Source of the DNA: a phage
Length of the DNA stretch: 23,062 nt
NCBI GenBank assembly: GCA_011967385.1
Contig: GCA_011967385.1_4516.2
Reading direction: 5' to 3' (one strand)
The translations under genes and the position numbers were made by a program. Under the pieces are notes generated by a model, which ran no database searches, had not been told where the DNA came from, and saw only the letters and a program-made list of their open reading frames with translations. Positions 1,168 through 21,637 of this stretch are shown piece after piece (within the stretch, counting starts at the first letter, position 1; the number at the start of each line of letters is the position of its first letter).

Positions 1168-1472
1168 TATAATGTTCTCTCAAATTTGTGGAAGCATTTA
1201 CGGCATTTCAATTTCAGGTTATCAGTGGTCCAGTTAACCAATTGAACCTGAATAGTTCCACATTCCGGACACGGATGTTTTGCTGCCGATTTGGCAGCAT
1301 TTTCACGTCGTTCAACCATTTTCATTATTTCGTTCCATGCCGGAGGAACGAACTCTTCTTTACCATGAATTTTATCTCGCTGAACAAATTCAATCTTTGA
1401 ACTATCGTCAATAAACTTAACTAAGCTGTGATTAGTGTTCATATCAATATCCTCTAAAAGACGTAGTTTCAT
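1167..1472 (-). CDS. Zinc-ribbon protein (CPEC...CRKC), function unknown
   Basis: TAATG overlap at both ends. C-terminal four-Cys ribbon: HPCPECGTIQVQLVNWTTDNLKLKCRKCFHKF. Confidence 0.65.
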   Translation of the reverse strand: MKLRLLEDIDMNTNHSLVKFIDDSSKIEFVQRDKIHGKEEFVPPAWNEIMKMVERRENAAKSAAKHPCPECGTIQVQLVNWTTDNLKLKCRKCFHKFERTL

Positions 1473-2422
1473 TATAACACCTCAATGGCATTTCGTAAAC
1501 CATCCGCTTTCGCATTCAGAGCTTTTAACGATTTAGTTTGTTCTTTAATCTGGGCTTCGACTTCTTTCAGACGAGATTTGAGATATTCGCGTTCTTCTCT
1601 TAAGTTATCAACTTTTTCTGCTTTAGGCTCTTTAATAGGCTTAGGTTTATATGTATTAGGGTTCTTCAACTTAATTTGAATGCGAGAACTGAATAACATC
1701 GAACCGTTATCTTCGGTTTCACTGTGCATTTCTACCACGTCCATGATTCTTAACATCATGCGAAGTTTATAAGACAGCGAACGAACGGTTTTATTGTGCT
1801 TCTTAATTTCTTCAGCTTTCATGGTACCGAGATTACGTGAGTAGTAATAAGGAACCTGGATATCAATTGACAATGATGCGTTACCATTACCAGTTGGTTT
1901 GAATACTGCAGTAACCCAATCTTTAACATGAACTTTATTTGTACGATCATCGCCGCCTGTGAATAATTTACATGAATGTTTAAAAAGCATATTCACTTGG
2001 TTATTGAATTCACAAGCAAATTTATCAGCAAATTTAGTTTCAGGAATGGTAGAGAACCAATCAGCCAAATGAGTCTTTTTAACATCGTTAATAATAGTAA
2101 ATTCAACCAAATCAGTTTTAGATGTCACAGATTTAATAAAGCTCGGCTTCATAAAGTTTTTAATGTTATCGCGAGCTACAGTAGAAGATAATAAACGAGA
2201 ACGTTTGAACCATTGAAGCAGTGTCCCTAATGAATGAGAATACGCATTCTGAGTATCTTTACAGATATGGTTTTCTTGGCCTGTGTATGTACCAAAATCG
2301 CGAAGAATACCACTTACTACATCTCGGTGTGGAACATCAAATCCTAGTGCACCAACGGCGCGCTGGGCATGAACGTTAGCGATAAGACCGGCAAAGTATT
2401 CAATGTAATGTGAACGTGTCAT
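1472..2422 (-). CDS. Hypothetical protein, 316 aa, with C-terminal Lys/Glu-rich coiled-coil tail
   Basis: ATG at 2422, SD GAGAGG, own promoter at 2451-2480. The C-terminus (KPKPIKEPKAEKVDNLREEREYLKSRLKEVEAQIKEQTKSLKALNAKADGLRNAIEVL) looks coiled-coil. Confidence 0.7.
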   Translation of the reverse strand: MTRSHYIEYFAGLIANVHAQRAVGALGFDVPHRDVVSGILRDFGTYTGQENHICKDTQNAYSHSLGTLLQWFKRSRLLSSTVARDNIKNFMKPSFIKSVTSKTDLVEFTIINDVKKTHLADWFSTIPETKFADKFACEFNNQVNMLFKHSCKLFTGGDDRTNKVHVKDWVTAVFKPTGNGNASLSIDIQVPYYYSRNLGTMKAEEIKKHNKTVRSLSYKLRMMLRIMDVVEMHSETEDNGSMLFSSRIQIKLKNPNTYKPKPIKEPKAEKVDNLREEREYLKSRLKEVEAQIKEQTKSLKALNAKADGLRNAIEVL

Positions 2423-2450
2423 AATATTTTCCTCTCGTTAAGATAGATTC

Positions 2451-2480
2451 ATTATACTCCAACCATCCTTGGTTGTAAAC
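2451..2480 (-). promoter_or_regulatory. Sigma70-type early promoter (GTTTAC-N18-TATAAT)
   Basis: Minus strand: -35 GTTTAC (2480-2475), -10 TATAAT (2456-2451), upstream of the ATG at 2422. Confidence 0.55.
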
Positions 2481-2484
2481 TGAT

Positions 2485-3441
2485 TTATGATTTTAATGCA
2501 TTCATTGCGTTAAAAAGTTTAGAGTACTGCAACTGGAGATTGGTCACCACCTGTTGAGCATCACGAAGCTTAGCTTGTGCCTTGTCAAGTTCAACGGATA
2601 GTTGGTCTACAGTAGCCTTGATTTGATTGTAATGATAATCTTCAGCCGGAAGAAGGTCATTAGAAACATTTAGTTTTACTGCCGACAGTTTGCACACATT
2701 TGGCAAACCTTTAAACATACCAGATTGTGCTGGAGAATATGCGTCTAGAACCTCTGCATTACCGACTGGTGTTGCTGTAATATTACCTTCAAACAATGCA
2801 TTTTCCTTTTTAAGATTTTGATAGTATTCAGAGTCTTTGTGCCACCATGGTGCAGGAACCTTTTTACCAATAGATACACGAGCCTGGATAGCGATATGGC
2901 CCTTATTCTTGATAGGGTTGATAATATTAAGCTCACGAGAATAAATTGCTTTAATCTGGTGGATATTATCACCTAACACTTCCAACGCTTGGTGGAATAC
3001 ACGAGCAACGTTATCATTCTTAGGTTTATACGTAAGAGTGAACTCATTCTCACTGATAACCATGATTTCTAACTTATCGTGAGTATATTTCAAATGTTTC
3101 ATGTTAATTGCTTGAGGACGAATACGAGAAGCAATGGCCATCAGATTGTTAAGGTTATTCCGGAACTGCTTAGCGAAATATTGTCCTTCACCACCAATAC
3201 AAAAATTACGAAGTTTCTGTTTGGCCAGTAAACGACTGAACTCACCGTTTTTAATGAACTCTTTAACGGGAGTGTTAGTAACACATTCAAATTGAGTAAA
3301 CTTACGAGAAGTAATCCCATAATACGAACAGATTTCCTCAATCTCTTCAGGAGTCTTTACAGGCATACGGATAGGATTAGGTCCTGGAGTATATGCGTTC
3401 GAGGTAAATTCTTTGATAAGTTCTCTACGTGTAATAGCCAT
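2485..3441 (-). CDS. Hypothetical protein, 318 aa, with C-terminal coiled-coil
   Basis: ATG at 3441. The promoter/leader 3467-3497 duplicates the one upstream of the previous gene. C-terminus is Q/L-rich helical (LDKAQAKLRDAQQVVTNLQLQYSKLFNAMNALKS). Confidence 0.7.
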   Translation of the reverse strand: MAITRRELIKEFTSNAYTPGPNPIRMPVKTPEEIEEICSYYGITSRKFTQFECVTNTPVKEFIKNGEFSRLLAKQKLRNFCIGGEGQYFAKQFRNNLNNLMAIASRIRPQAINMKHLKYTHDKLEIMVISENEFTLTYKPKNDNVARVFHQALEVLGDNIHQIKAIYSRELNIINPIKNKGHIAIQARVSIGKKVPAPWWHKDSEYYQNLKKENALFEGNITATPVGNAEVLDAYSPAQSGMFKGLPNVCKLSAVKLNVSNDLLPAEDYHYNQIKATVDQLSVELDKAQAKLRDAQQVVTNLQLQYSKLFNAMNALKS

Positions 3442-3467
3442 TTTATATTCCTCATGTTGAAAAATTT

Positions 3468-3497
3468 ATTATACTCCAACCATCCTTGGTTGTACAT
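3468..3497 (-). promoter_or_regulatory. Early promoter-like element with degenerate -35 (ATGTAC-N18-TATAAT)
   Basis: About 27 nt (TTATACTCCAACCATCCTTGGTTGTA) identical to the 2451-2480 promoter/leader. Confidence 0.4.
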
Positions 3498-4492
3498 CAT
3501 TCCTTAAGAAGTTTTACTACCTGAATAAGATTAGCTCGTTCTGTTTTATTTTTACCGTTCAATCCGGCCAATCGCGAGATTTCATCGTCAGTTTGTTGAA
3601 TAGTTACATTAAGTTCATTAATCAAAGCTTCAAAGTATTTGATTTGCTCAGCATGTTTTGATTCAAATTTCTGAACCGGAATAACGTCTTGGTTCAGTTC
3701 ATCAATAAGGTCTTTAAGAGCATCTTCTTGGTTGATATCATATTCAACTTCTTTTATTTCTTCAACGAGCTCGTCTTTATATCTAACGTCTTTTAGTCCT
3801 GGTGCTGGTCCTGAAATCTCTTCTTTAAGAGTACAAACATATCCAATACGGTATCCAATGCCGTCTCGCTTGATATCAACTTCGTCGATAAATCCGCAAT
3901 GTTTAAGTCCAGAGCCGATTATGTCAAAATATCCTTGACGTCGTCCTTCAAACGTTACACGAACTACTAAGACAGTTTTGCCACCAACCTTTTGAAGCTC
4001 GCATTTATAAAAGTCTGTTGAACCTGAATAACGTGGATGAGTTTTAAAGTTCATCTGACGATCTAGGCCCATTTGTAAACGTGCTGTTACGGCCATAAAA
4101 CGTGTTTGGTTCTCGTTAAGATGAGCAACAATCCATTTCAAAGGCATTTTACACTGTTCACGACCGAACAAGTCAGTACGTCCTAGATTACGCAGGATGT
4201 TGTTAGAGTTAATCATCGACAGAACGTTAAGTTTATTCAGCGCGCTGAAGATTCCATCAGCCATTGATTTTCCATAACCTTTACACGCTTTAATAAGTGC
4301 TCGCGGCAGATTAGTATAGATTTCAGACGGCATATGAAAATCAAATTTACTAGTCAGTAATTGATGAACTTGGATAGCAATTTGCTCATAATTAAGTGCT
4401 CTGCGATCGTTATGGTCTTTAAACCACACTTTAATCTGTGAAGCACATAAACCGTTAATTTCATGTTTTACCGCATCAGATGTAATGCTCAT
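3497..4492 (-). CDS. Hypothetical protein, 331 aa, with C-terminal acidic coiled-coil
   Basis: ATG at 4492, SD GAGGAAA. Third of three consecutive ~320 aa proteins that share a coiled-coil tail. Confidence 0.7.
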   Translation of the reverse strand: MSITSDAVKHEINGLCASQIKVWFKDHNDRRALNYEQIAIQVHQLLTSKFDFHMPSEIYTNLPRALIKACKGYGKSMADGIFSALNKLNVLSMINSNNILRNLGRTDLFGREQCKMPLKWIVAHLNENQTRFMAVTARLQMGLDRQMNFKTHPRYSGSTDFYKCELQKVGGKTVLVVRVTFEGRRQGYFDIIGSGLKHCGFIDEVDIKRDGIGYRIGYVCTLKEEISGPAPGLKDVRYKDELVEEIKEVEYDINQEDALKDLIDELNQDVIPVQKFESKHAEQIKYFEALINELNVTIQQTDDEISRLAGLNGKNKTERANLIQVVKLLKE

Positions 4493-4527
4493 AACTATTT
4501 CCTCAGATTGAATTGGAACTCAAAACC

Positions 4528-4552
4528 ATTATAACCCGTCCTTGGGTAAAGC
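4528..4552 (-). promoter_or_regulatory. Possible MotA-dependent middle promoter (aCGCTTTA box, 13 nt, TATAAT)
   Basis: Minus strand aaaCGCTTTAcccaaggacgggtTATAATgg. No -35 hexamer at sigma70 spacing, but a MotA-box-like GCTTTA sits about 13 nt upstream of -10. Confidence 0.35.
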
Positions 4553-4554
4553 GT

Positions 4555-5082
4555 TTATGCGTGAACCGTCTTTAAACGTTCTTCAAATTTCCGAAGAGTA
4601 CTAATACGTTCTGCTTTCTGTTTTGTGTAGTTTGCAATACGTTCTGAAGTGAGAGCGTATCGTTCGTTTACTGTTTCTTTCATGAAGTCAGGGATTTCAC
4701 GAGAAGCTTTAATTTCATCAAACTTATCGAGTACTGCCTGGTCTTCAGCAATTAAATTTTCGTACATCTCGATATCTTTCTTGATGAAGTCGATATCTTC
4801 CTGGGTTACTTTGGATAAACGAGATGCTTTATCCTTTTTGTACTGCTCGTTAGTTTCACGAGACCAGAATAATGTACGTTTTTTGTTAGTGTTTTTGTAG
4901 ACTTCCACAATTCCAACTGAATCGATGATAACAATCCAATTCCAGCGAGATTTGAAAATCTGACCTCCGTCCACGGTAATCTCGTTACCATAAGCAACGT
5001 CATTAAAGAACTTGCTTTGTGCTTCAGATTTAAATTTACCGTCGTTATAATTTACCAGGTTGAAAATATCTTTAGCGTTCAT
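4555..5082 (-). CDS. Hypothetical protein, 175 aa
   Basis: ATG at 5082 preceded by GGAGG; early promoter at 5110-5138. Confidence 0.65.
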   Translation of the reverse strand: MNAKDIFNLVNYNDGKFKSEAQSKFFNDVAYGNEITVDGGQIFKSRWNWIVIIDSVGIVEVYKNTNKKRTLFWSRETNEQYKKDKASRLSKVTQEDIDFIKKDIEMYENLIAEDQAVLDKFDEIKASREIPDFMKETVNERYALTSERIANYTKQKAERISTLRKFEERLKTVHA

Positions 5083-5109
5083 GTTTTACCTCCAGTAGTT
5101 GATAGGTCT

Positions 5110-5138
5110 ATAATAACATAACCATAGACCTTGTAAAC
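5110..5138 (-). promoter_or_regulatory. Sigma70-type early promoter (GTTTAC-N17-TATTAT)
   Basis: Upstream of the ATG at 5082. The spacer contains an 8-bp perfect inverted repeat AGGTCTAT/ATAGACCT (5104-5131). Confidence 0.5.
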
Positions 5139-5140
5139 AA

Positions 5141-5416
5141 CTAAAAGAAACTTTTTTCGGTATTTTTTCCACTGAACCAAACAGACTTCGGGATTTTTTG
5201 TAATTTTTCAGATTTAAGTTTCTCTTCCTGTTCTTTCTTATACGCATCCTTGTCGTACTGGAGCATCTCTATGGCATTCTTTTGCAAATGATCTAAGGTA
5301 ATTAAGGCTTTAGTTTTTCCTTTCAAGGAAGAGTCCTGGCGAACCTCCTCGCTATATTGTTCTGTTGCACTAATCATACGATGGGCATATAATTCACGAC
5401 TGGCTTGGATATTCAT
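5141..5416 (-). CDS. Hypothetical protein, 91 aa
   Basis: ATG at 5416 with SD GAGGA inside the 3' end of the upstream ATPase gene. Confidence 0.55.
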   Translation of the reverse strand: MNIQASRELYAHRMISATEQYSEEVRQDSSLKGKTKALITLDHLQKNAIEMLQYDKDAYKKEQEEKLKSEKLQKIPKSVWFSGKNTEKSFF

Positions 5417-5423
5417 AATTTCC

Positions 5424-6404
5424 TCATTTCAGTAAAGTTACTTCGGAGATTTCCTCCCAACCATCTTTATCAGTTGAAATAAAATCTGCTACATAAAGAG
5501 CCGTACGTAATGATACATTGCGAAGACGAGATATGTTAGCCTTCATCCAGGACAATGCTTTGTACGTTTCTGCATCCGTCAGGCCACGTTTCTGCATCAT
5601 GTCAGTAGATAATATTACATCTTCAACTCGGACCATAATCTCTTCATTAGAGTGTACTCCAAGGTCCAAATACACTGAACGAGATACTAAAGCTTGAAGG
5701 TGTGGAGCAAGTTTCGAACCGCGTTCTAACTCTTTATCGATATCAACGTTTGTAATGAAAACGATAGTACCTTCAAACTCAAATTCTTTATCGATACCCT
5801 TATCATCAAGATAAGATGATGCAGTGCTCCAGCAAACTTTGCGTTTATCGCCAGTATCTAATGCGGCTTTAAGAAGGTTCAAGATGTCCATATCTGAGAA
5901 TACATCAACGTCATCGATTAAGAGAACGCTGTCTGCATCACGGTTGAGCCAAAGTTGTTCGTAAAGGCCAATACCAGAGATTTTGCCATTAATGCTTTTG
6001 TATTTGATGAAACCATTATCATTAGCATTATTAAGCGCTTTATCCAGAGAATACGTCTTACCAATACCTGCTGCACCTGAAATAATGAGTGAACGAATTT
6101 TGCCATCGATAATGCCATTCGTCATCATGTTCATTACTTTAAAGCGTTTGTTGATACGAGTTTTCATATCTTCAGCGTTTTCAACAACTGCAACTGGTGA
6201 TGTCTCAACTCCTTCCATTACGATGTCTGATTTGAAGACCCATACTCCACGTTCAGAACCATCAATCATAACGAAAATTTTACCGTCACCTAAGTGGGAA
6301 CATTCAGGATTAAGCTTTGCCGGGAACCATGTCTTTGTGGCAACATAAGAACCAGAGATTTCGTTATTACGATAGATACCTTTTTTGATTTGAACGTTGA
6401 ACAT
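5424..6404 (-). CDS. P-loop NTPase, AAA+-like, with a ~110 aa N-terminal extra domain
   Basis: Walker A LIISGAAGIGKTYS, Walker B VLLIDDVD, sensor-1-like IVFITN. The track start at 6416 is TTG; the ATG at 6404 has SD GGAG. Early promoter at 6444-6472. Confidence 0.75.
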   Translation of the reverse strand: MFNVQIKKGIYRNNEISGSYVATKTWFPAKLNPECSHLGDGKIFVMIDGSERGVWVFKSDIVMEGVETSPVAVVENAEDMKTRINKRFKVMNMMTNGIIDGKIRSLIISGAAGIGKTYSLDKALNNANDNGFIKYKSINGKISGIGLYEQLWLNRDADSVLLIDDVDVFSDMDILNLLKAALDTGDKRKVCWSTASSYLDDKGIDKEFEFEGTIVFITNVDIDKELERGSKLAPHLQALVSRSVYLDLGVHSNEEIMVRVEDVILSTDMMQKRGLTDAETYKALSWMKANISRLRNVSLRTALYVADFISTDKDGWEEISEVTLLK

Positions 6405-6443
6405 TTTATTCTCCAAATTTACTCATTTCGTTTCGATAGGTCT

Positions 6444-6472
6444 ATAATAACATGTTTAAAGCAAAAGTAAAC
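6444..6472 (-). promoter_or_regulatory. Sigma70-type early promoter (GTTTAC-N17-TATTAT)
   Basis: Upstream of the ATPase gene start at 6404. Confidence 0.5.
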
Positions 6473-6474
6473 AA

Positions 6475-6693
6475 TTATTTGCGACGAGATTTTTTGGTAA
6501 GAGGTTGAAAGAACATTGCTTTACCAGCAGGAGTCAAAGTGACTCGTAATGCGTTACCGATTCCTAAGGATGCTTTAACTAGACCTTTAGCTTTCAGTTC
6601 ACCGAATGCTTGACGTTGGTCTGCATCACGAGTGTTAACCATAAGACCTTTATCACCAGCTTCACGAATCATTTCTAACATTTTGGTTTTCAT
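6475..6693 (-). CDS. Small basic protein (72 aa), possible winged-helix DNA/RNA binder
   Basis: The track start at 6750 is GTG and lies in the promoter -35; the ATG at 6693 has a strong SD AGAGGAGAA. MKTKMLEMIREAGDKGLMVNTRDADQRQAFGELKAKGLVKASLGIGNALRVTLTPAGKAMFFQPLTKKSRRK. Confidence 0.55.
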   Translation of the reverse strand: MKTKMLEMIREAGDKGLMVNTRDADQRQAFGELKAKGLVKASLGIGNALRVTLTPAGKAMFFQPLTKKSRRK

Positions 6694-6721
6694 TTTGTTC
6701 TCCTCTTGTTTTGATAGGTCT

Positions 6722-6750
6722 ATAATAACATATCCTAAAAGCATGTACAC
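6722..6750 (-). promoter_or_regulatory. Early promoter-like element (GTGTAC-N17-TATTAT)
   Basis: Upstream of the ATG at 6693. Confidence 0.4.
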
Positions 6751-6777
6751 TACTTTTTAAAAATATTTTGACCCCCT

Positions 6778-6797
6778 AAAGGGCCCGAAGGCCCTTA
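6778..6797. terminator. Stable GC hairpin (C(UUCG)G tetraloop in the minus-strand RNA) right after the NTase stop: terminator or RNA-stability element
   Basis: AAGGGCC-cgaa-GGCCCTT on the plus strand. The minus RNA forms a GGGCC stem with a UUCG loop, followed by UUUAGGGGG rather than a clean U-run. Confidence 0.45.
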
Positions 6798-7787
6798 TCA
6801 TTTATAGTATGAATTGTGGTTTTCTAAGTAGACTTGCTCAAGGAAGTCATCCCAGAAACTCATATCTACTTTTTGCTGCATACCATTCTTAGCGGCTTGT
6901 TCTGCGGCATGTTCAACTTGGTCGACGATATCTTCTAGGAATTCCTGTACGGTTTTAAACGTATGTTTACCAAGCTTAACATCGAGAATAAATGGAGCAT
7001 CCTGAAGCGGGTAAACCAGGTCGCCGGTTTTGTAAATTTCTAAGAGCTGAAGTCCACCACGGCATGCGTGACTCAATGCTTTCCAATCAATACCTTCATT
7101 GGCTTCTGCCTTACGAGCACGTTCACCATAGTTCTCTTCCAGTTTAACCAGGATGGCATTGAACTCTTTGTTAGTTAACGTATCTTGGAATTTACGGTCT
7201 AACAGACTATAGAATGTTTGCTTACCTGTTTTCTCGTTTTCAGTTTCAACCCATGAAGCAAATTCACCTACAGGCAGAACATTCTTCATATGTGATAAAC
7301 GAATTACTGCACCGTTATCAAAGTATTGTCCCCATTCATTAGAACGTTTAAGGGCTTGGCGAAGAACAGCCAGACGAGAACCCTTGACGCCATATTTAGA
7401 AGCTTGCTTACGGACATACCCTAAATAAGATTTCATGTTAGTGGTATAGAAACGAGACCTGTTGTCTTGAATATACTTCCATACATCAGGCAAATCAGAT
7501 TTAACTACTAGACCTGGTGGAGTGTGAAGCATATCTAATGCGACAGTTTCACCATCTGCAGCTAGTTTAAAGAAATATTTGAGACTATACAACTCATGGT
7601 CCACGTCGTCTTTTGTGTTCTTAGAAGATGTGTTATTCGTGTTCTTGCTCATGTGTTCTTTAACGTTACCGGTCAAAATATCACGAGCATGAGGGACATA
7701 AATTTCTTTAAAATCGACGTCAGATTCAGGAGTAGACGTTCCATAAAGGTGGCTACCAAAGTAGCCTTTCATAATTGTTTTCATCAT
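6798..7787 (-). CDS. Pol-beta-superfamily nucleotidyltransferase-like protein (GS...DVD motif) with helical C-terminal domain
   Basis: N-terminal GSHLYGTSTPESDVDF fits the NTase signature hG[GS]-x9-13-Dh[DE]h, with a possible third acidic residue in VALDMLH. ATG at 7787 overlaps the upstream stop (ATGA). Followed by a hairpin at 6778-6797. Confidence 0.75.
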   Translation of the reverse strand: MMKTIMKGYFGSHLYGTSTPESDVDFKEIYVPHARDILTGNVKEHMSKNTNNTSSKNTKDDVDHELYSLKYFFKLAADGETVALDMLHTPPGLVVKSDLPDVWKYIQDNRSRFYTTNMKSYLGYVRKQASKYGVKGSRLAVLRQALKRSNEWGQYFDNGAVIRLSHMKNVLPVGEFASWVETENEKTGKQTFYSLLDRKFQDTLTNKEFNAILVKLEENYGERARKAEANEGIDWKALSHACRGGLQLLEIYKTGDLVYPLQDAPFILDVKLGKHTFKTVQEFLEDIVDQVEHAAEQAAKNGMQQKVDMSFWDDFLEQVYLENHNSYYK

Positions 7788-11526: not shown

Positions 11527-11729
11527 TTAGGTTCACCTTCTTTAACGAAATCTGGGTAAGGATAAAATCCTGAGTAAAACCCTTCACCTTTGTGATTGCT
11601 ACAACCTTTGTTCGAACAGTAGCACCAATAATCAAAATCACAAGCCATTTCATCATTGCATAAAGCAAAAACTACAGGCCATTCACATCTTTCGCATTTA
11701 GCACCTGTAAGAATTTTTGTTTGACTCAT
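11523..11729 (-). CDS. Cys-rich small protein (68 aa, 8 Cys), probable metal-binding (tk.2 position)
   Basis: The track start at 11750 is TTG; the ATG at 11729 is in an ATGA overlap. CERCEW...C...C...CYC...C pattern. Confidence 0.5.
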   Translation of the reverse strand: MSQTKILTGAKCERCEWPVVFALCNDEMACDFDYWCYCSNKGCSNHKGEGFYSGFYPYPDFVKEGEPK

Positions 11730-11938
11730 AACCATTTGACCTGCATGCAATATTCTTCGACATGCTTTTTACGACCTTTCTTATCAATAAAGGTGTATTC
11801 CATAAAGCGTCCATGATAACGACGTTCAACATCGTGAGGGGTGTTAATAGGACACTTAGTCTGACGAATTTCTTCCCATTCACGAATAATAACTGCTTTA
11901 TTCTTTGGGTCATACGGGTGAGGATAATGCACATTCAT
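11726..11938 (-). CDS. Small hypothetical protein, 70 aa (tk.3 position)
   Basis: The track start at 11953 is TTG; the ATG at 11938 is in an ATGA overlap with the macro gene stop. Confidence 0.5.
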   Translation of the reverse strand: MNVHYPHPYDPKNKAVIIREWEEIRQTKCPINTPHDVERRYHGRFMEYTFIDKKGRKKHVEEYCMQVKWL

Positions 11939-12432
11939 AATAATGGTTCCCAATCAACAATCACAATTTCTAGTTTAGTGGAATATGTATCAAGAATTTC
12001 TTCGATAACGCCCCAGTTTCCACCACCGATACCTGCACCAATTCTTGGCATATAAATTACAGGCTTTGTTATCTTATTCTTTCCGAATTCATTTAATTCT
12101 ATTATACAATTCATTAAAGCAGAGTACTCAAAATTAGGTCCCGGCTCAAACTGTGTATAAAGATTAAAGCAATAAGCTTTATGGGTCTTAAAATATTTTT
12201 CATAAACTGAATAAGATCCGAGTTTAGACTCATCTCCATATACAGTTTGAAGTTTATCAGCTTCCAGAATTTTTGGATACGCCTTTGCTAATTGTCCTGC
12301 TACACCTGCGCCCATTGTATGAAAACAATTACACCCATGAGCAATATTGTTACCTTTAGAAAACAGGGCGACAATATCGCCCTTGATATAGTTTTTAATC
12401 ACTTGCTGCAAGTCCTCTAGTATAAGAGTCAA
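11935..12432 (-). CDS. Macro-domain (ADP-ribose binding/processing) protein (tk.4 position)
   Basis: KGDIVALFSKGNNIAHGCNCFHTMGAGVAGQLAKAYP and a later IGAGIGGG resemble macro-domain glycine-rich motifs. There is no ATG before residue 40, so the start is non-ATG: either TTG at 12432 (SD GGTGGA 8 nt upstream) or GTG at 12402. Confidence 0.65.
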   Translation of the reverse strand: MTLILEDLQQVIKNYIKGDIVALFSKGNNIAHGCNCFHTMGAGVAGQLAKAYPKILEADKLQTVYGDESKLGSYSVYEKYFKTHKAYCFNLYTQFEPGPNFEYSALMNCIIELNEFGKNKITKPVIYMPRIGAGIGGGNWGVIEEILDTYSTKLEIVIVDWEPLL

Positions 12433-12742
12433 CTAGACGGTCCACCATAGAATTGCATGCTGCCTTATCTTTAGGTTCCGCCACCGAGCATTCTAATATT
12501 TGCCATTTTTTATGATATCGTTTAATTAAGGTAGACGCCTTGAACCTACTAGACGCCCCATCTTTTTCTCCGTCTTTATATGCGTATAACAATTTTTGTG
12601 AAAAATCTACTTTACACTCTTGACTTTTACCACAATAATCAGACGCCGTTCTGTTTGTATACTCCGTTACATCAGTATATGTAGTATTAGCAAGAGCATT
12701 AAATGAAACCAAGCCAACTATTAAAGCCAACATTTTGGTCAT
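12395..12742 (-). CDS. Small exported Cys-containing protein, 115 aa, at the syntenic position of T4 vs
   Basis: ATG at 12742 in an ATGA overlap. N-terminal signal peptide (MTKMLALIVGLVSFNALA). The length equals T4 Vs as I recall, but I cannot confirm identity, and a signal peptide is unexpected for Vs. Confidence 0.5.
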   Translation of the reverse strand: MTKMLALIVGLVSFNALANTTYTDVTEYTNRTASDYCGKSQECKVDFSQKLLYAYKDGEKDGASSRFKASTLIKRYHKKWQILECSVAEPKDKAACNSMVDRLVDSYTRGLAASD

Positions 12743-13281
12743 TCTTTTACTTCCAGTAGTTTATTTGATTTAAGGTAATTAGCCTTTTCTAGGACTTCAG
12801 AAGCATATTTACTTCCAGCACTTGTCTTCCATCCCGCATTATATGAGGATATGGCTTTCCTTATATCCCCGTTATGTATATTTAACCAATAAGAAAATTC
12901 GATATAAGCCCATCTTGCTGAATTAGACCGCTTAGATAGCATTTTCTTAATTTGGGCATCAGTCATATTATAACCAAGCTGGTTAATTCTTGCCCTCATT
13001 GTTGGTAGATAGTTTTGGAACATTCCATACGCATGGTGACCTTTCTTATCTTTAAGATTAATACCGGCAGATGATTCTTGCCATAGTATTGCGGCCATTA
13101 TGTATCCAAGTCCTTTCTTATGCATATTTTCATGCGTTTTAAATTTTCCGTCCTTAGAAAACTGTTCCCCAAACTGATAAGCATAATTCAAGTTATCGAG
13201 TTGGACATTACTAAAAGTATGCTCGGAGCTATGTGCTGATAATGAAAGAGCAAATAGACCAGCGAGTAGTGCTTTTCTCAT
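12739..13281 (-). CDS. Lytic transglycosylase-like exported protein (vs.1 position)
   Basis: Signal peptide (MRKALLAGLFALSLSAHS), SLT-like catalytic region ILWQESSAG and AYGMFQ. SD AGAGG. Confidence 0.7.
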   Translation of the reverse strand: MRKALLAGLFALSLSAHSSEHTFSNVQLDNLNYAYQFGEQFSKDGKFKTHENMHKKGLGYIMAAILWQESSAGINLKDKKGHHAYGMFQNYLPTMRARINQLGYNMTDAQIKKMLSKRSNSARWAYIEFSYWLNIHNGDIRKAISSYNAGWKTSAGSKYASEVLEKANYLKSNKLLEVKE

Positions 13282-20680: not shown

Positions 20681-21637
20681 TTATTTGAAAGGTTTTACCA
20701 TATGGAAATTTTGTTTGAAACGTTTGACGTAATCGTCATGTCCTAAGCTTTGGTACATACTTACTACTTTGCTGTAGTTTTCCCAAGCATACTCACGGAA
20801 CCAACCAGAGGTGATGCTTGTACAGACTTTTTCCAATGCCATCATAAAACTGGCTTCAGGGTTAATTTTAAAGTCATTAGGAATCTGAGAACGTTCTAAT
20901 GCTAGTACACATGATTCTTCGTATACACCGGCCAATTTGACCATTTCCGGTAATGATTCGAACTTCTCGCGTGAGGTCATGACTTCAGAACCATCTTTCA
21001 TGTAAAACGTATAAGCAGGGCGGTCTGTTAGTGCAATGGCTTCGTGAATAGTATCATGGTCATACGTATAGATGTCATCTTTAAAGAATGCGCTTTTAGA
21101 AGTGTCAAGAACTGGGTGAGCATAGTTCAAGGTTTCTTTCTGGCGTTTCAGCATAATTTCAGTAAGTTCATCGTTCAGTGTAACACCTTTACCACGAAGA
21201 TACTGAATATGGTTCATAGTCTTTAAAAAGAATGGATTATTTTTCTTGAAACGATGAGACATCTTAATTGCAAGACACATCTCAGGAGTTGCCCAGTAAA
21301 ACCCGTTCAAACGGTCTTTAGTCAAATTTTTCTTGGCGTATTTTAAAAGGTCATAAGAAGACGTGAAATCTTCAGGAGTGAGTTCACCGACTAATTCACG
21401 GACATTAGTGATTGCCGGAACAATATATGCTTCAAAATGAGTTTCGCGTCCATTATGGAAGCATTTGAAAACTTGGACATCAGGATTATCTTGGTGAACA
21501 TATACACCCATCATTTGATTTTTGAATGCATTCCAAGAACCTTGGTCCGCAATAAAGTCCCAGTCACTATTTTTGATAGCGCTAGAATCAATAAGGCCGT
21601 GATAGTGAAGTGCACGAGAACCAATAACCAACATCAT
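20681..21637 (-). CDS. Hypothetical protein, 318 aa
   Basis: ATG at 21637 with SD GAGGAA. N-terminal GSRALHYHG...SDWDF is only loosely NTase-like; not called. Confidence 0.7.
   Translation of the reverse strand: MMLVIGSRALHYHGLIDSSAIKNSDWDFIADQGSWNAFKNQMMGVYVHQDNPDVQVFKCFHNGRETHFEAYIVPAITNVRELVGELTPEDFTSSYDLLKYAKKNLTKDRLNGFYWATPEMCLAIKMSHRFKKNNPFFLKTMNHIQYLRGKGVTLNDELTEIMLKRQKETLNYAHPVLDTSKSAFFKDDIYTYDHDTIHEAIALTDRPAYTFYMKDGSEVMTSREKFESLPEMVKLAGVYEESCVLALERSQIPNDFKINPEASFMMALEKVCTSITSGWFREYAWENYSKVVSMYQSLGHDDYVKRFKQNFHMVKPFK

Follow-up and report, generated by a model that had tools for sequence, protein, structure and literature searches.

A T4 transposon library placed on a DarTG2 host gave a single significant hit, tk.4, and the gene was renamed AdfM in that 2025 preprint because its clean deletion sensitized T4 to DarTG2 (bioRxiv 10.1101/2025.11.20.689424). 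Resistance to DarTG2 persists in T2 and T4 without adfN and in T4 without adfA and adfN together, and a further factor was predicted (PMC11825919). The name AdfM is also carried by gp104 of PhiKZ, which removes ADP-ribose from TNTC DNA in vitro (2026; PMC13309987). Here we analyze the tk.4-like gene in a 23,062-nucleotide (nt) stretch of phage DNA (GenBank assembly GCA_011967385.1, contig GCA_011967385.1_4516.2), called the window below. In our judgment, its product is likely a macrodomain that acts as an orphan antitoxin and clears phage DNA of DarT2-made ADP-ribosyl-thymidine by means of a glutamine-type active site.

The precedent for such an active site is SCO6735, a macrodomain protein 54% identical to BT1257. 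SCO6735 strips DarT-made ADP-ribose from DNA thymidine faster than DarG or TARG1 does (PMC9411070; PMC9967889). At the position of the catalytic lysine it has Gln85, and both Q85A and Q85E are inactive; a water-mediated mechanism has been proposed, in which Gln85 would hold both the substrate and an activated water in place (PMC9411070). The "mobile loop" of SCO6735 and BT1257 is about 5 residues longer than that of DarG and TARG1 (PMC9411070).

The macrodomain call and the GTG start of relatives already stand in public annotation, and the function of the T4 orthologue has been published. To the published accounts we add the replacement of the catalytic lysine by glutamine, the separation of this family from PhiKZ AdfM, and an RNA hairpin that is conserved; the overall picture is unchanged by them. 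The gene would be a textbook example of a phage orphan antitoxin, and it bears on predicting which T-even-like phages infect DarTG2 hosts.

The gene is the RB69-like orthologue of T4 tk.4

The window is a segment of a T4-like phage of the RB69/Mosigvirus type, and everything in it lies on the minus strand. Its gene order is regB, vs.1, vs, the open reading frame (ORF) of interest, tk.3, tk.2, tk.1, tk, rI.1, rI. T4 likewise has regB, vs.1, vs, tk.4, tk.3, tk.2, tk.1, tk, so the two loci are syntenic. The protein aligns with T4 Tk.4 without gaps at 84% identity over 155/155 residues. Both its identity to T4 Tk.4 and its position between vs and tk.3 place it in the T4 Tk.4/AdfM orthologous group. 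We therefore identify the gene as the orthologue, in the RB69-like Mosigvirus lineage, of T4 tk.4, which has lately received the name adfM (anti-DarT factor, macrodomain).

In public records, close relatives have a coding sequence (CDS) of 468 nt equivalent to 11935..12402 of the window. In a tblastn search, 2613 phage records, spread over many genera, contained homologues, and the protein matched PHROG 335 ("phosphatase") at 1e-65. Public annotation calls these proteins "macro domain protein," "Poa1p-like family protein," or "phosphatase."

The protein has the fold of an ALC1-like macrodomain

An earlier note on this DNA, made from the sequence alone, had called the product a macrodomain protein, and both the profile searches and the predicted fold confirm this, at levels far beyond chance. 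The Pfam Macro model (PF01661) scored 26.3 bits against a gathering cutoff of 22 (E = 7.5e-6; residues 32 to 143 of the 165-amino-acid [aa] ORF), and the macrodomain part of the PADLOC DarG model was matched at 2.4e-8. We used 52 homologues to build an AlphaFold2 model, which had a mean predicted local distance difference test score (pLDDT) of 95.7 and a predicted template modeling score (pTM) of 0.90. It has the three-layer alpha/beta/alpha fold with a mixed central sheet that is found in solved macrodomains. Because TARG1, Poa1p, BT1257, and DarG ranked first when Foldseek compared the model with the PDB, we place the protein in the ALC1-like class (TARG1, DarG, Poa1p, SCO6735). Both glycine-rich loops and the asparagine of the ADP-ribose pocket are kept, and the protein is predicted from its sequence to bind ADP-ribose.

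An invariant glutamine stands at the catalytic-lysine position

Four motifs of the putative active site are listed in Table 1; the conservation counts given there are from 118 homologues. The HGCNC motif aligned with N22 of DarG, with H23 and N26 of Poa1p, and with the motif THICN of BT1257. S30 of Poa1p fell opposite T29, which varies among the homologues. The first glycine-rich loop, MGAGVAG, aligned with MGAGIA of TARG1 and MGKGIA of DarG. The second resembles PRIGCGLAGGKW of BT1257 and PRIGCGLAGGTW of SCO6735, and here D125 of TARG1 lies opposite G126 of the Tk.4 orthologue.

In profile-profile alignments, the segment N80-L-Y-T-Q84 stood opposite N76-F-P-T-K80 of DarG, Y-L-I-T-K84 of TARG1, and N-M-I-G-Q of BT1257. 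The Mycobacterium tuberculosis DarG sequence used in the alignment is identical to PDB 5M3I at 149/149 positions. The TARG1 sequence is supported only by K84 and D125 falling at their published residue numbers. Around the BT1257 glutamine, MAFFT misaligned the sequences and hhalign resolved them. A search of the PDB with a C-terminal fragment, aimed at the SCO6735 alignment around Q85, aligned the last loop only, and so the equivalence of Q84 and SCO6735 Q85 rests on BT1257 and on the published comparison (PMC9411070). By analogy with SCO6735, the invariant Q84 points to a water-based mechanism.

Binding to the toxin or to its product, and not hydrolysis, might instead be the main way in which the protein neutralizes DarT2. 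The catalytically dead mutants SCO6735 Q85A, DarG K80A, and TARG1 K84A all inhibit DarT in vitro (PMC9411070), and DarG K80 mutants still dampen DarT (PMC9967889). However, the ligand-binding and catalytic-site residues, Q84, N25, and H22 included, are conserved across the 118 homologues in the pattern of an enzyme, and the protein does not have the dedicated C-terminal DarT-binding domain of DarG. We consider a noncatalytic inhibitor very unlikely.

The protein probably erases ADP-ribose from phage DNA

The earlier note suggested that a phage macrodomain could reverse a host defense modification. That idea agrees with the need of T4 for tk.4 against DarTG2 (bioRxiv 10.1101/2025.11.20.689424), but the mark in question is on DNA thymidine, not on protein. 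We envisage that early in infection the enzyme would bind the ADP-ribose put by DarT2, the host toxin, on N3 of thymidine in single-stranded phage DNA. H22, N25, and the two glycine-rich loops would hold the distal ribose and the diphosphate, and the bond between ribose and base would be hydrolyzed. Because this would restore replicable DNA, the protein would act as an orphan antitoxin. With the invariant Q84 at the equivalent position, the chemistry is probably not lysine based as it is in DarG and TARG1. The DarTG2 phenotype is taken from the T4 literature and the glutamine-type activity from SCO6735, and by analogy the protein of the window would have the same activity.

Several points weigh against this proposal. 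The authors of the T4 preprint inferred enzymatic removal of ADP-ribose from DNA on structural similarity only, and the DarTG2 phenotype comes from T4 and not from an RB69-type phage (bioRxiv 10.1101/2025.11.20.689424). The catalytic lysine of DarG is replaced by Q84, and the protein is without the extended mobile loop with which the high activity of SCO6735 and BT1257 on DNA has been connected (PMC9411070). Finally, the H-x-C-N-C motif is common to yeast Poa1p, which is an ADP-ribose-1''-phosphate phosphatase; in keeping with this, RefSeq names the protein "phosphatase."

The last point raises the alternative that the protein is a Poa1p-like small-molecule phosphatase or esterase. It would act on ADP-ribose-1''-phosphate or O-acetyl-ADP-ribose, either in metabolic clean-up or to destroy signals or toxins derived from ADP-ribose. 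The motif includes Poa1p H23, and H23A and S30A mutants of Poa1p have been crystallized. The annotation of T4 and RefSeq, "phosphatase / A1pp motif," agrees with such a function, and it has been argued that phage macrodomains target mostly low-molecular-weight ADP-ribose derivatives (PMC9503650). In some unrelated phages, the Tk.4 homologue adjoins genes for the salvage of nicotinamide adenine dinucleotide (NAD), a neighborhood that the window does not have. The sole recorded phenotype, moreover, is specific to DarTG2, which modifies DNA (bioRxiv 10.1101/2025.11.20.689424), and the invariant Gln84 matches that of SCO6735, a proven DNA-ADP-ribose hydrolase (PMC9411070). The fragment of Poa1p compared reads LFTSS in the region of Q84, a match of regions and not of single residues. 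A phosphatase or esterase of this kind is, in our view, unlikely.

Vibrio phage Kronos (H53) and Acinetobacter phage TAC1 (H54) have a Tk.4-like gene beside genes for ribose-phosphate pyrophosphokinase or nicotinamide phosphoribosyltransferase. These NAD-salvage neighbors hint at a link to NAD and ADP-ribose metabolism in the Kronos and TAC1 lineages.

T-even phages carry Alt, ModA, and ModB, and the earlier note also raised the possibility that the macrodomain tunes this phage-driven ADP-ribosylation. We found no support for this, and nothing in the window, by genetics or by context, ties the gene to alt or mod genes. Alt, ModA, and ModB modify arginine, and no ALC1-like macrodomain is known to cleave that linkage, which counts against a role on these proteins. 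More broadly, the protein might remove ADP-ribose from protein or RNA, reversing or tuning Alt, ModA, and ModB marks or countering host ADP-ribosyltransferases that act on RNA or protein. TARG1 and SCO6735 do strip Asp- and Glu-linked ADP-ribose from proteins as well (PMC9967889; PMC9411070), and reference lists show that RNA has been tried as a substrate for SCO6735-type enzymes. Against such a role, T4 carries tk.4 and yet does not escape restriction by the mRNA ADP-ribosyltransferase CmdTAC. We judge a protein or RNA target to be quite unlikely and prefer the removal of ADP-ribose from phage DNA.

Translation starts at GTG within the vs gene

The ORF 11935..12432 (minus strand) encodes 165 aa when read from its first codon, TTG. 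As the earlier note had read, it opens with TTG, has GGTGGA upstream, contains no ATG before residue 40, and encodes glycine-rich motifs. That note proposed a non-ATG start at either TTG 12432 or GTG 12402; the start is indeed non-ATG and is the GTG, and the comparative evidence excludes the TTG.

Initiation at TTG would give a protein with a 10-residue N-terminal extension. The codon is in frame, an in-frame TAG precedes it, and GGTGGA lies 8 nt upstream. We compared the start region among 48 related loci from viral contigs. T4 tk.4 has ATG at the homologous codon, and the codon directly upstream of it is TAG (T4 ATGATTGTAAAATATATCAAG versus GTGATTAAAAACTATATCAAG in the window); the T4-type loci have the same arrangement of an ATG with a preceding stop. 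GTG is found at the start codon in three RB69-like loci and also in L013, which belongs to a more distant lineage. Two of the three RB69-like loci, L004 and L005, whose proteins are 96% identical, have a TAG in frame with the GTG and 6 nt before it. TTG is therefore unusable there, and GTG is the only possible start. Family homologues begin M-I-x-x, and every public annotation that we checked places the start at the GTG/ATG position. We regard an extended protein as extremely improbable, and TTG was ruled out as the start because of the in-frame stops that relatives have between TTG and GTG.

The 468-nt CDS of relatives, the position of the T4 ATG, and the stops in related loci all place the start at GTG 12402. 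These comparisons indicate that the true CDS is 30 nt shorter than the listed ORF. The earlier note had allowed for a sequencing error that, once corrected, would restore an ATG. This does not apply, since the RB69-like lineage keeps GTG at this codon and public records already annotate it. The first in-frame ATG, residue 40 of the 165-aa ORF, is inside HTMGAG of the first glycine-rich loop, and so a start there would remove strand 1 and the HGCNC motif.

The GTG lies within the end of the vs ORF (12395..12742), and the overlap of start and stop codons (Table 1) suits translational coupling. T4 has an equivalent ATGA overlap of the vs stop and the tk.4 start. These overlaps among vs, tk.4, and tk.3 are the usual tightly coupled layout of T4 early genes. 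Translation begins at GTG 12402 and is probably coupled to the termination of vs.

A hairpin is conserved in the first codons of the gene

An 8-bp GC-rich hairpin can form in the mRNA at codons 7 to 13 (Table 1), followed by GUUUUCU; the U-tract is at 12357-12364 (minus strand). Distant homologues have the hairpin with a different sequence: its arms are AGGGCGAU and AUCGCCCU in L029 and GAGGGAGAU and AUCUCCCUU in L030. The L030 hairpin includes a compensatory change (GGC/GCC to GGA/UCC), and in both L029 and L030 changes of codons and amino acids keep the hairpin. Only 0.1 to 0.3% of synonymous encodings of the same peptides fold as stably. Lineages with the peptide GDIVK or GNIVE do not have the hairpin. 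It may serve in attenuation, in processing, or in the control of translation.

The minimum-free-energy fold of the GTG-start lineage pairs the Shine-Dalgarno region 12412-12419 (UAGAGGAC) with the U-tract (z = -2.5). T4 has a different structure instead, which covers the AUG, and the pairing was found neither in T4 nor in the other lineages. We did not adopt it as a mechanism; its register is not conserved, and it may be due to chance.

A bolder proposal would join the hairpin to the active site. Tk.4-type macrodomains would make up a third catalytic type among DNA-ADP-ribose hydrolases, with the glutamine center of SCO6735 but without its mobile loop, and the hairpin together with a weak, vs-coupled GTG would be a genuine expression-control element. 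We put this forward as a speculation that is doubtful as a whole. If such a type exists, its substrate range could be different from or broader than that of DarG and could include, for example, uracil-linked ADP-ribose on RNA or the products of other DarT-like toxins.

Table 1. Positions of the tk.4/adfM orthologue and its features in the window
Feature	Coordinates	Strand	Basis
tk.4/adfM orthologue, CDS of a stand-alone macrodomain (155 aa)	11935..12402	-	Identity to T4, public 468-nt CDS, Pfam Macro, AlphaFold
In-frame TTG, proposed earlier as start; not the start	12430..12432	-	10 codons from TTG to GTG closed by stops in T4 and nearest relatives; inside vs coding sequence
Shine-Dalgarno-like AGAGGA, 10 nt upstream of GTG	12413..12418	-	Sequence; T4 has CGAGGA in the same place, 11 nt before ATG
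GTG start codon	12400..12402	-	T4 ATG at homologous codon; stops upstream in relatives
GTGATTAA overlap of tk.4 GTG start and vs TAA stop (12395-12397)	12395..12402	-	Sequence; suits translational coupling
8-bp GC-rich hairpin, AGGGCGAU-AUU-GUCGCCCU, codons 7-13	12365..12383	-	Fold; kept in T4, L029, L030; rarer than 0.4% among synonymous encodings
H22-G-C-N25-C motif, end of strand 2, facing distal ribose	12325..12339	-	H22 in 116/118, N25 in 117/118
M30-G-A-G-V-A-G36, first glycine-rich (phosphate-binding) loop	12295..12315	-	G33 and A35 invariant
N80-L-Y-T-Q84, catalytic-lysine position	12151..12165	-	hhalign and MAFFT; Q84, N80, and Y82 invariant (118/118)
P119-R-I-G-A-G-I-G-G-G-N-W130 (PRIGAGIGGGNW), second glycine-rich loop	12013..12048	-	P119, I121, G122, and G124 invariant
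ATGA overlap of tk.4 TGA stop (11935-11937) and tk.3 ATG (11936-11938)	11935..11938	-	Sequence; tk.3 CDS of relatives is 213 nt with the same start

Neighboring genes and related records

Downstream, the mechanically listed ORF of the tk.3 orthologue (11726-11953, minus strand) opens at TTG 11953, whereas the start that is annotated and supported by PHROG is ATG 11938; the PHROG alignment of the listed ORF begins only at residue 6. The vs.1 orthologue (12739-13281, minus strand, in the window; 2640-3182 in L002) encodes 180 aa and belongs to PHROG 600, of unknown function. Record KP869101 labels this gene "endoribonuclease RegB" beside the true regB, which is probably an error carried over during annotation.

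The records of Av-05 (L001, NC_025830) and phiE142 (NC_055709) are about 121 kb long, and their T4-like tk-vs-regB block is 96.6% identical to the window. Av-05 is labeled Vequintavirinae/Avunavirus. The labels or assemblies of these two records look inconsistent with a T4-like phage, the genome of which is about 169 kb. Elsewhere in the window (1472-7787 and 20681-21637, minus strand) there is a run of ORFs of 316 to 331 aa. Each matches a different PHROG, mostly of unknown function and in one case a nucleotidyltransferase, and BLASTP detected no paralogy among them.

Comparison with known macrodomain systems

T4 Tk.4/AdfM (NP_049723) is the nearest of the systems compared. Like the protein of the window, to which it is 84% identical, it is 155 aa long, is encoded between vs and tk.3, and has all of these motifs, Q84 among them; its gene carries the 5' hairpin too. 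The differences are that T4 starts with ATG and the window with GTG, that the overlap with the vs stop is 4 nt (ATGA) in T4 and 8 nt (GTGATTAA) in the window, and that T4 has a lysine where the protein of the window has G127.

SCO6735 of Streptomyces coelicolor and BT1257 of Bacteroides (PDB 5E3B, 2FG1, 2AFC) are also stand-alone macrodomains, with glutamine at the catalytic-lysine position and a PRIG[AC]G[IL][AG]GG.W loop. They are cellular and not phage proteins, however; their first glycine-rich loop has a lysine (GKG) where that of Tk.4 has an alanine (GAG), and BT1257 has a 5+1-residue insertion directly after the glutamine, in the mobile loop, that is not found in the Tk.4 family. Although the glutamine agrees, we rejected full membership in the SCO6735/BT1257 subclass because this insertion is missing.

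The DarG macrodomain (Thermus aquaticus, 5M31 and 5M3E; M. tuberculosis, 5M3I) likewise has the asparagine in strand 2 and the GG-x-x-W loop and, by T4 genetics, the same biological target, DarT2-made ADP-ribosyl-thymidine. It differs in having K80 where Tk.4 has Q84, and the tk.4 gene is not beside darT but has vs and tk.3 as its neighbors. The NCBIfam DarG equivalog NF048014 scored 30.5 bits against a cutoff of 250, with profile positions 4 to 146 of 338 matched and no C-terminal DarT-binding domain. With the catalytic lysine, the C-terminal domain, and the darT neighbor all missing, identity with DarG was rejected.

Human TARG1/OARD1 is of the same ALC1-like fold class and has the MGAG loop, but its catalytic dyad K84/D125 corresponds to Q84/G126 here, and a TARG1-type identity was rejected because the catalytic lysine and aspartate are both missing. 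Yeast Poa1p is again of the ALC1-like class, and its H23 and N26 in the H-x-C-N-C motif correspond to H22 and N25.

PhiKZ gp104, the AdfM of chimalliviruses, is like the T4 protein a stand-alone phage macrodomain directed against DarTG2. Unlike Tk.4, it is imported into the phage nucleus and belongs to a separate lineage. A tblastn search with the DarG macrodomain found 291 records, from jumbo and other phages, with no T4-like phage among the 30 matches listed. A PhiKZ-type homologue in Pseudomonas phage U5 (L052, 392-880) keeps the DarG-type FPTK lysine and is barely alignable with Tk.4 by BLASTP (23.9 bits over 23 residues). From this lysine and the near absence of similarity to Tk.4, we conclude that two unrelated lineages of phage macrodomains have been named AdfM.
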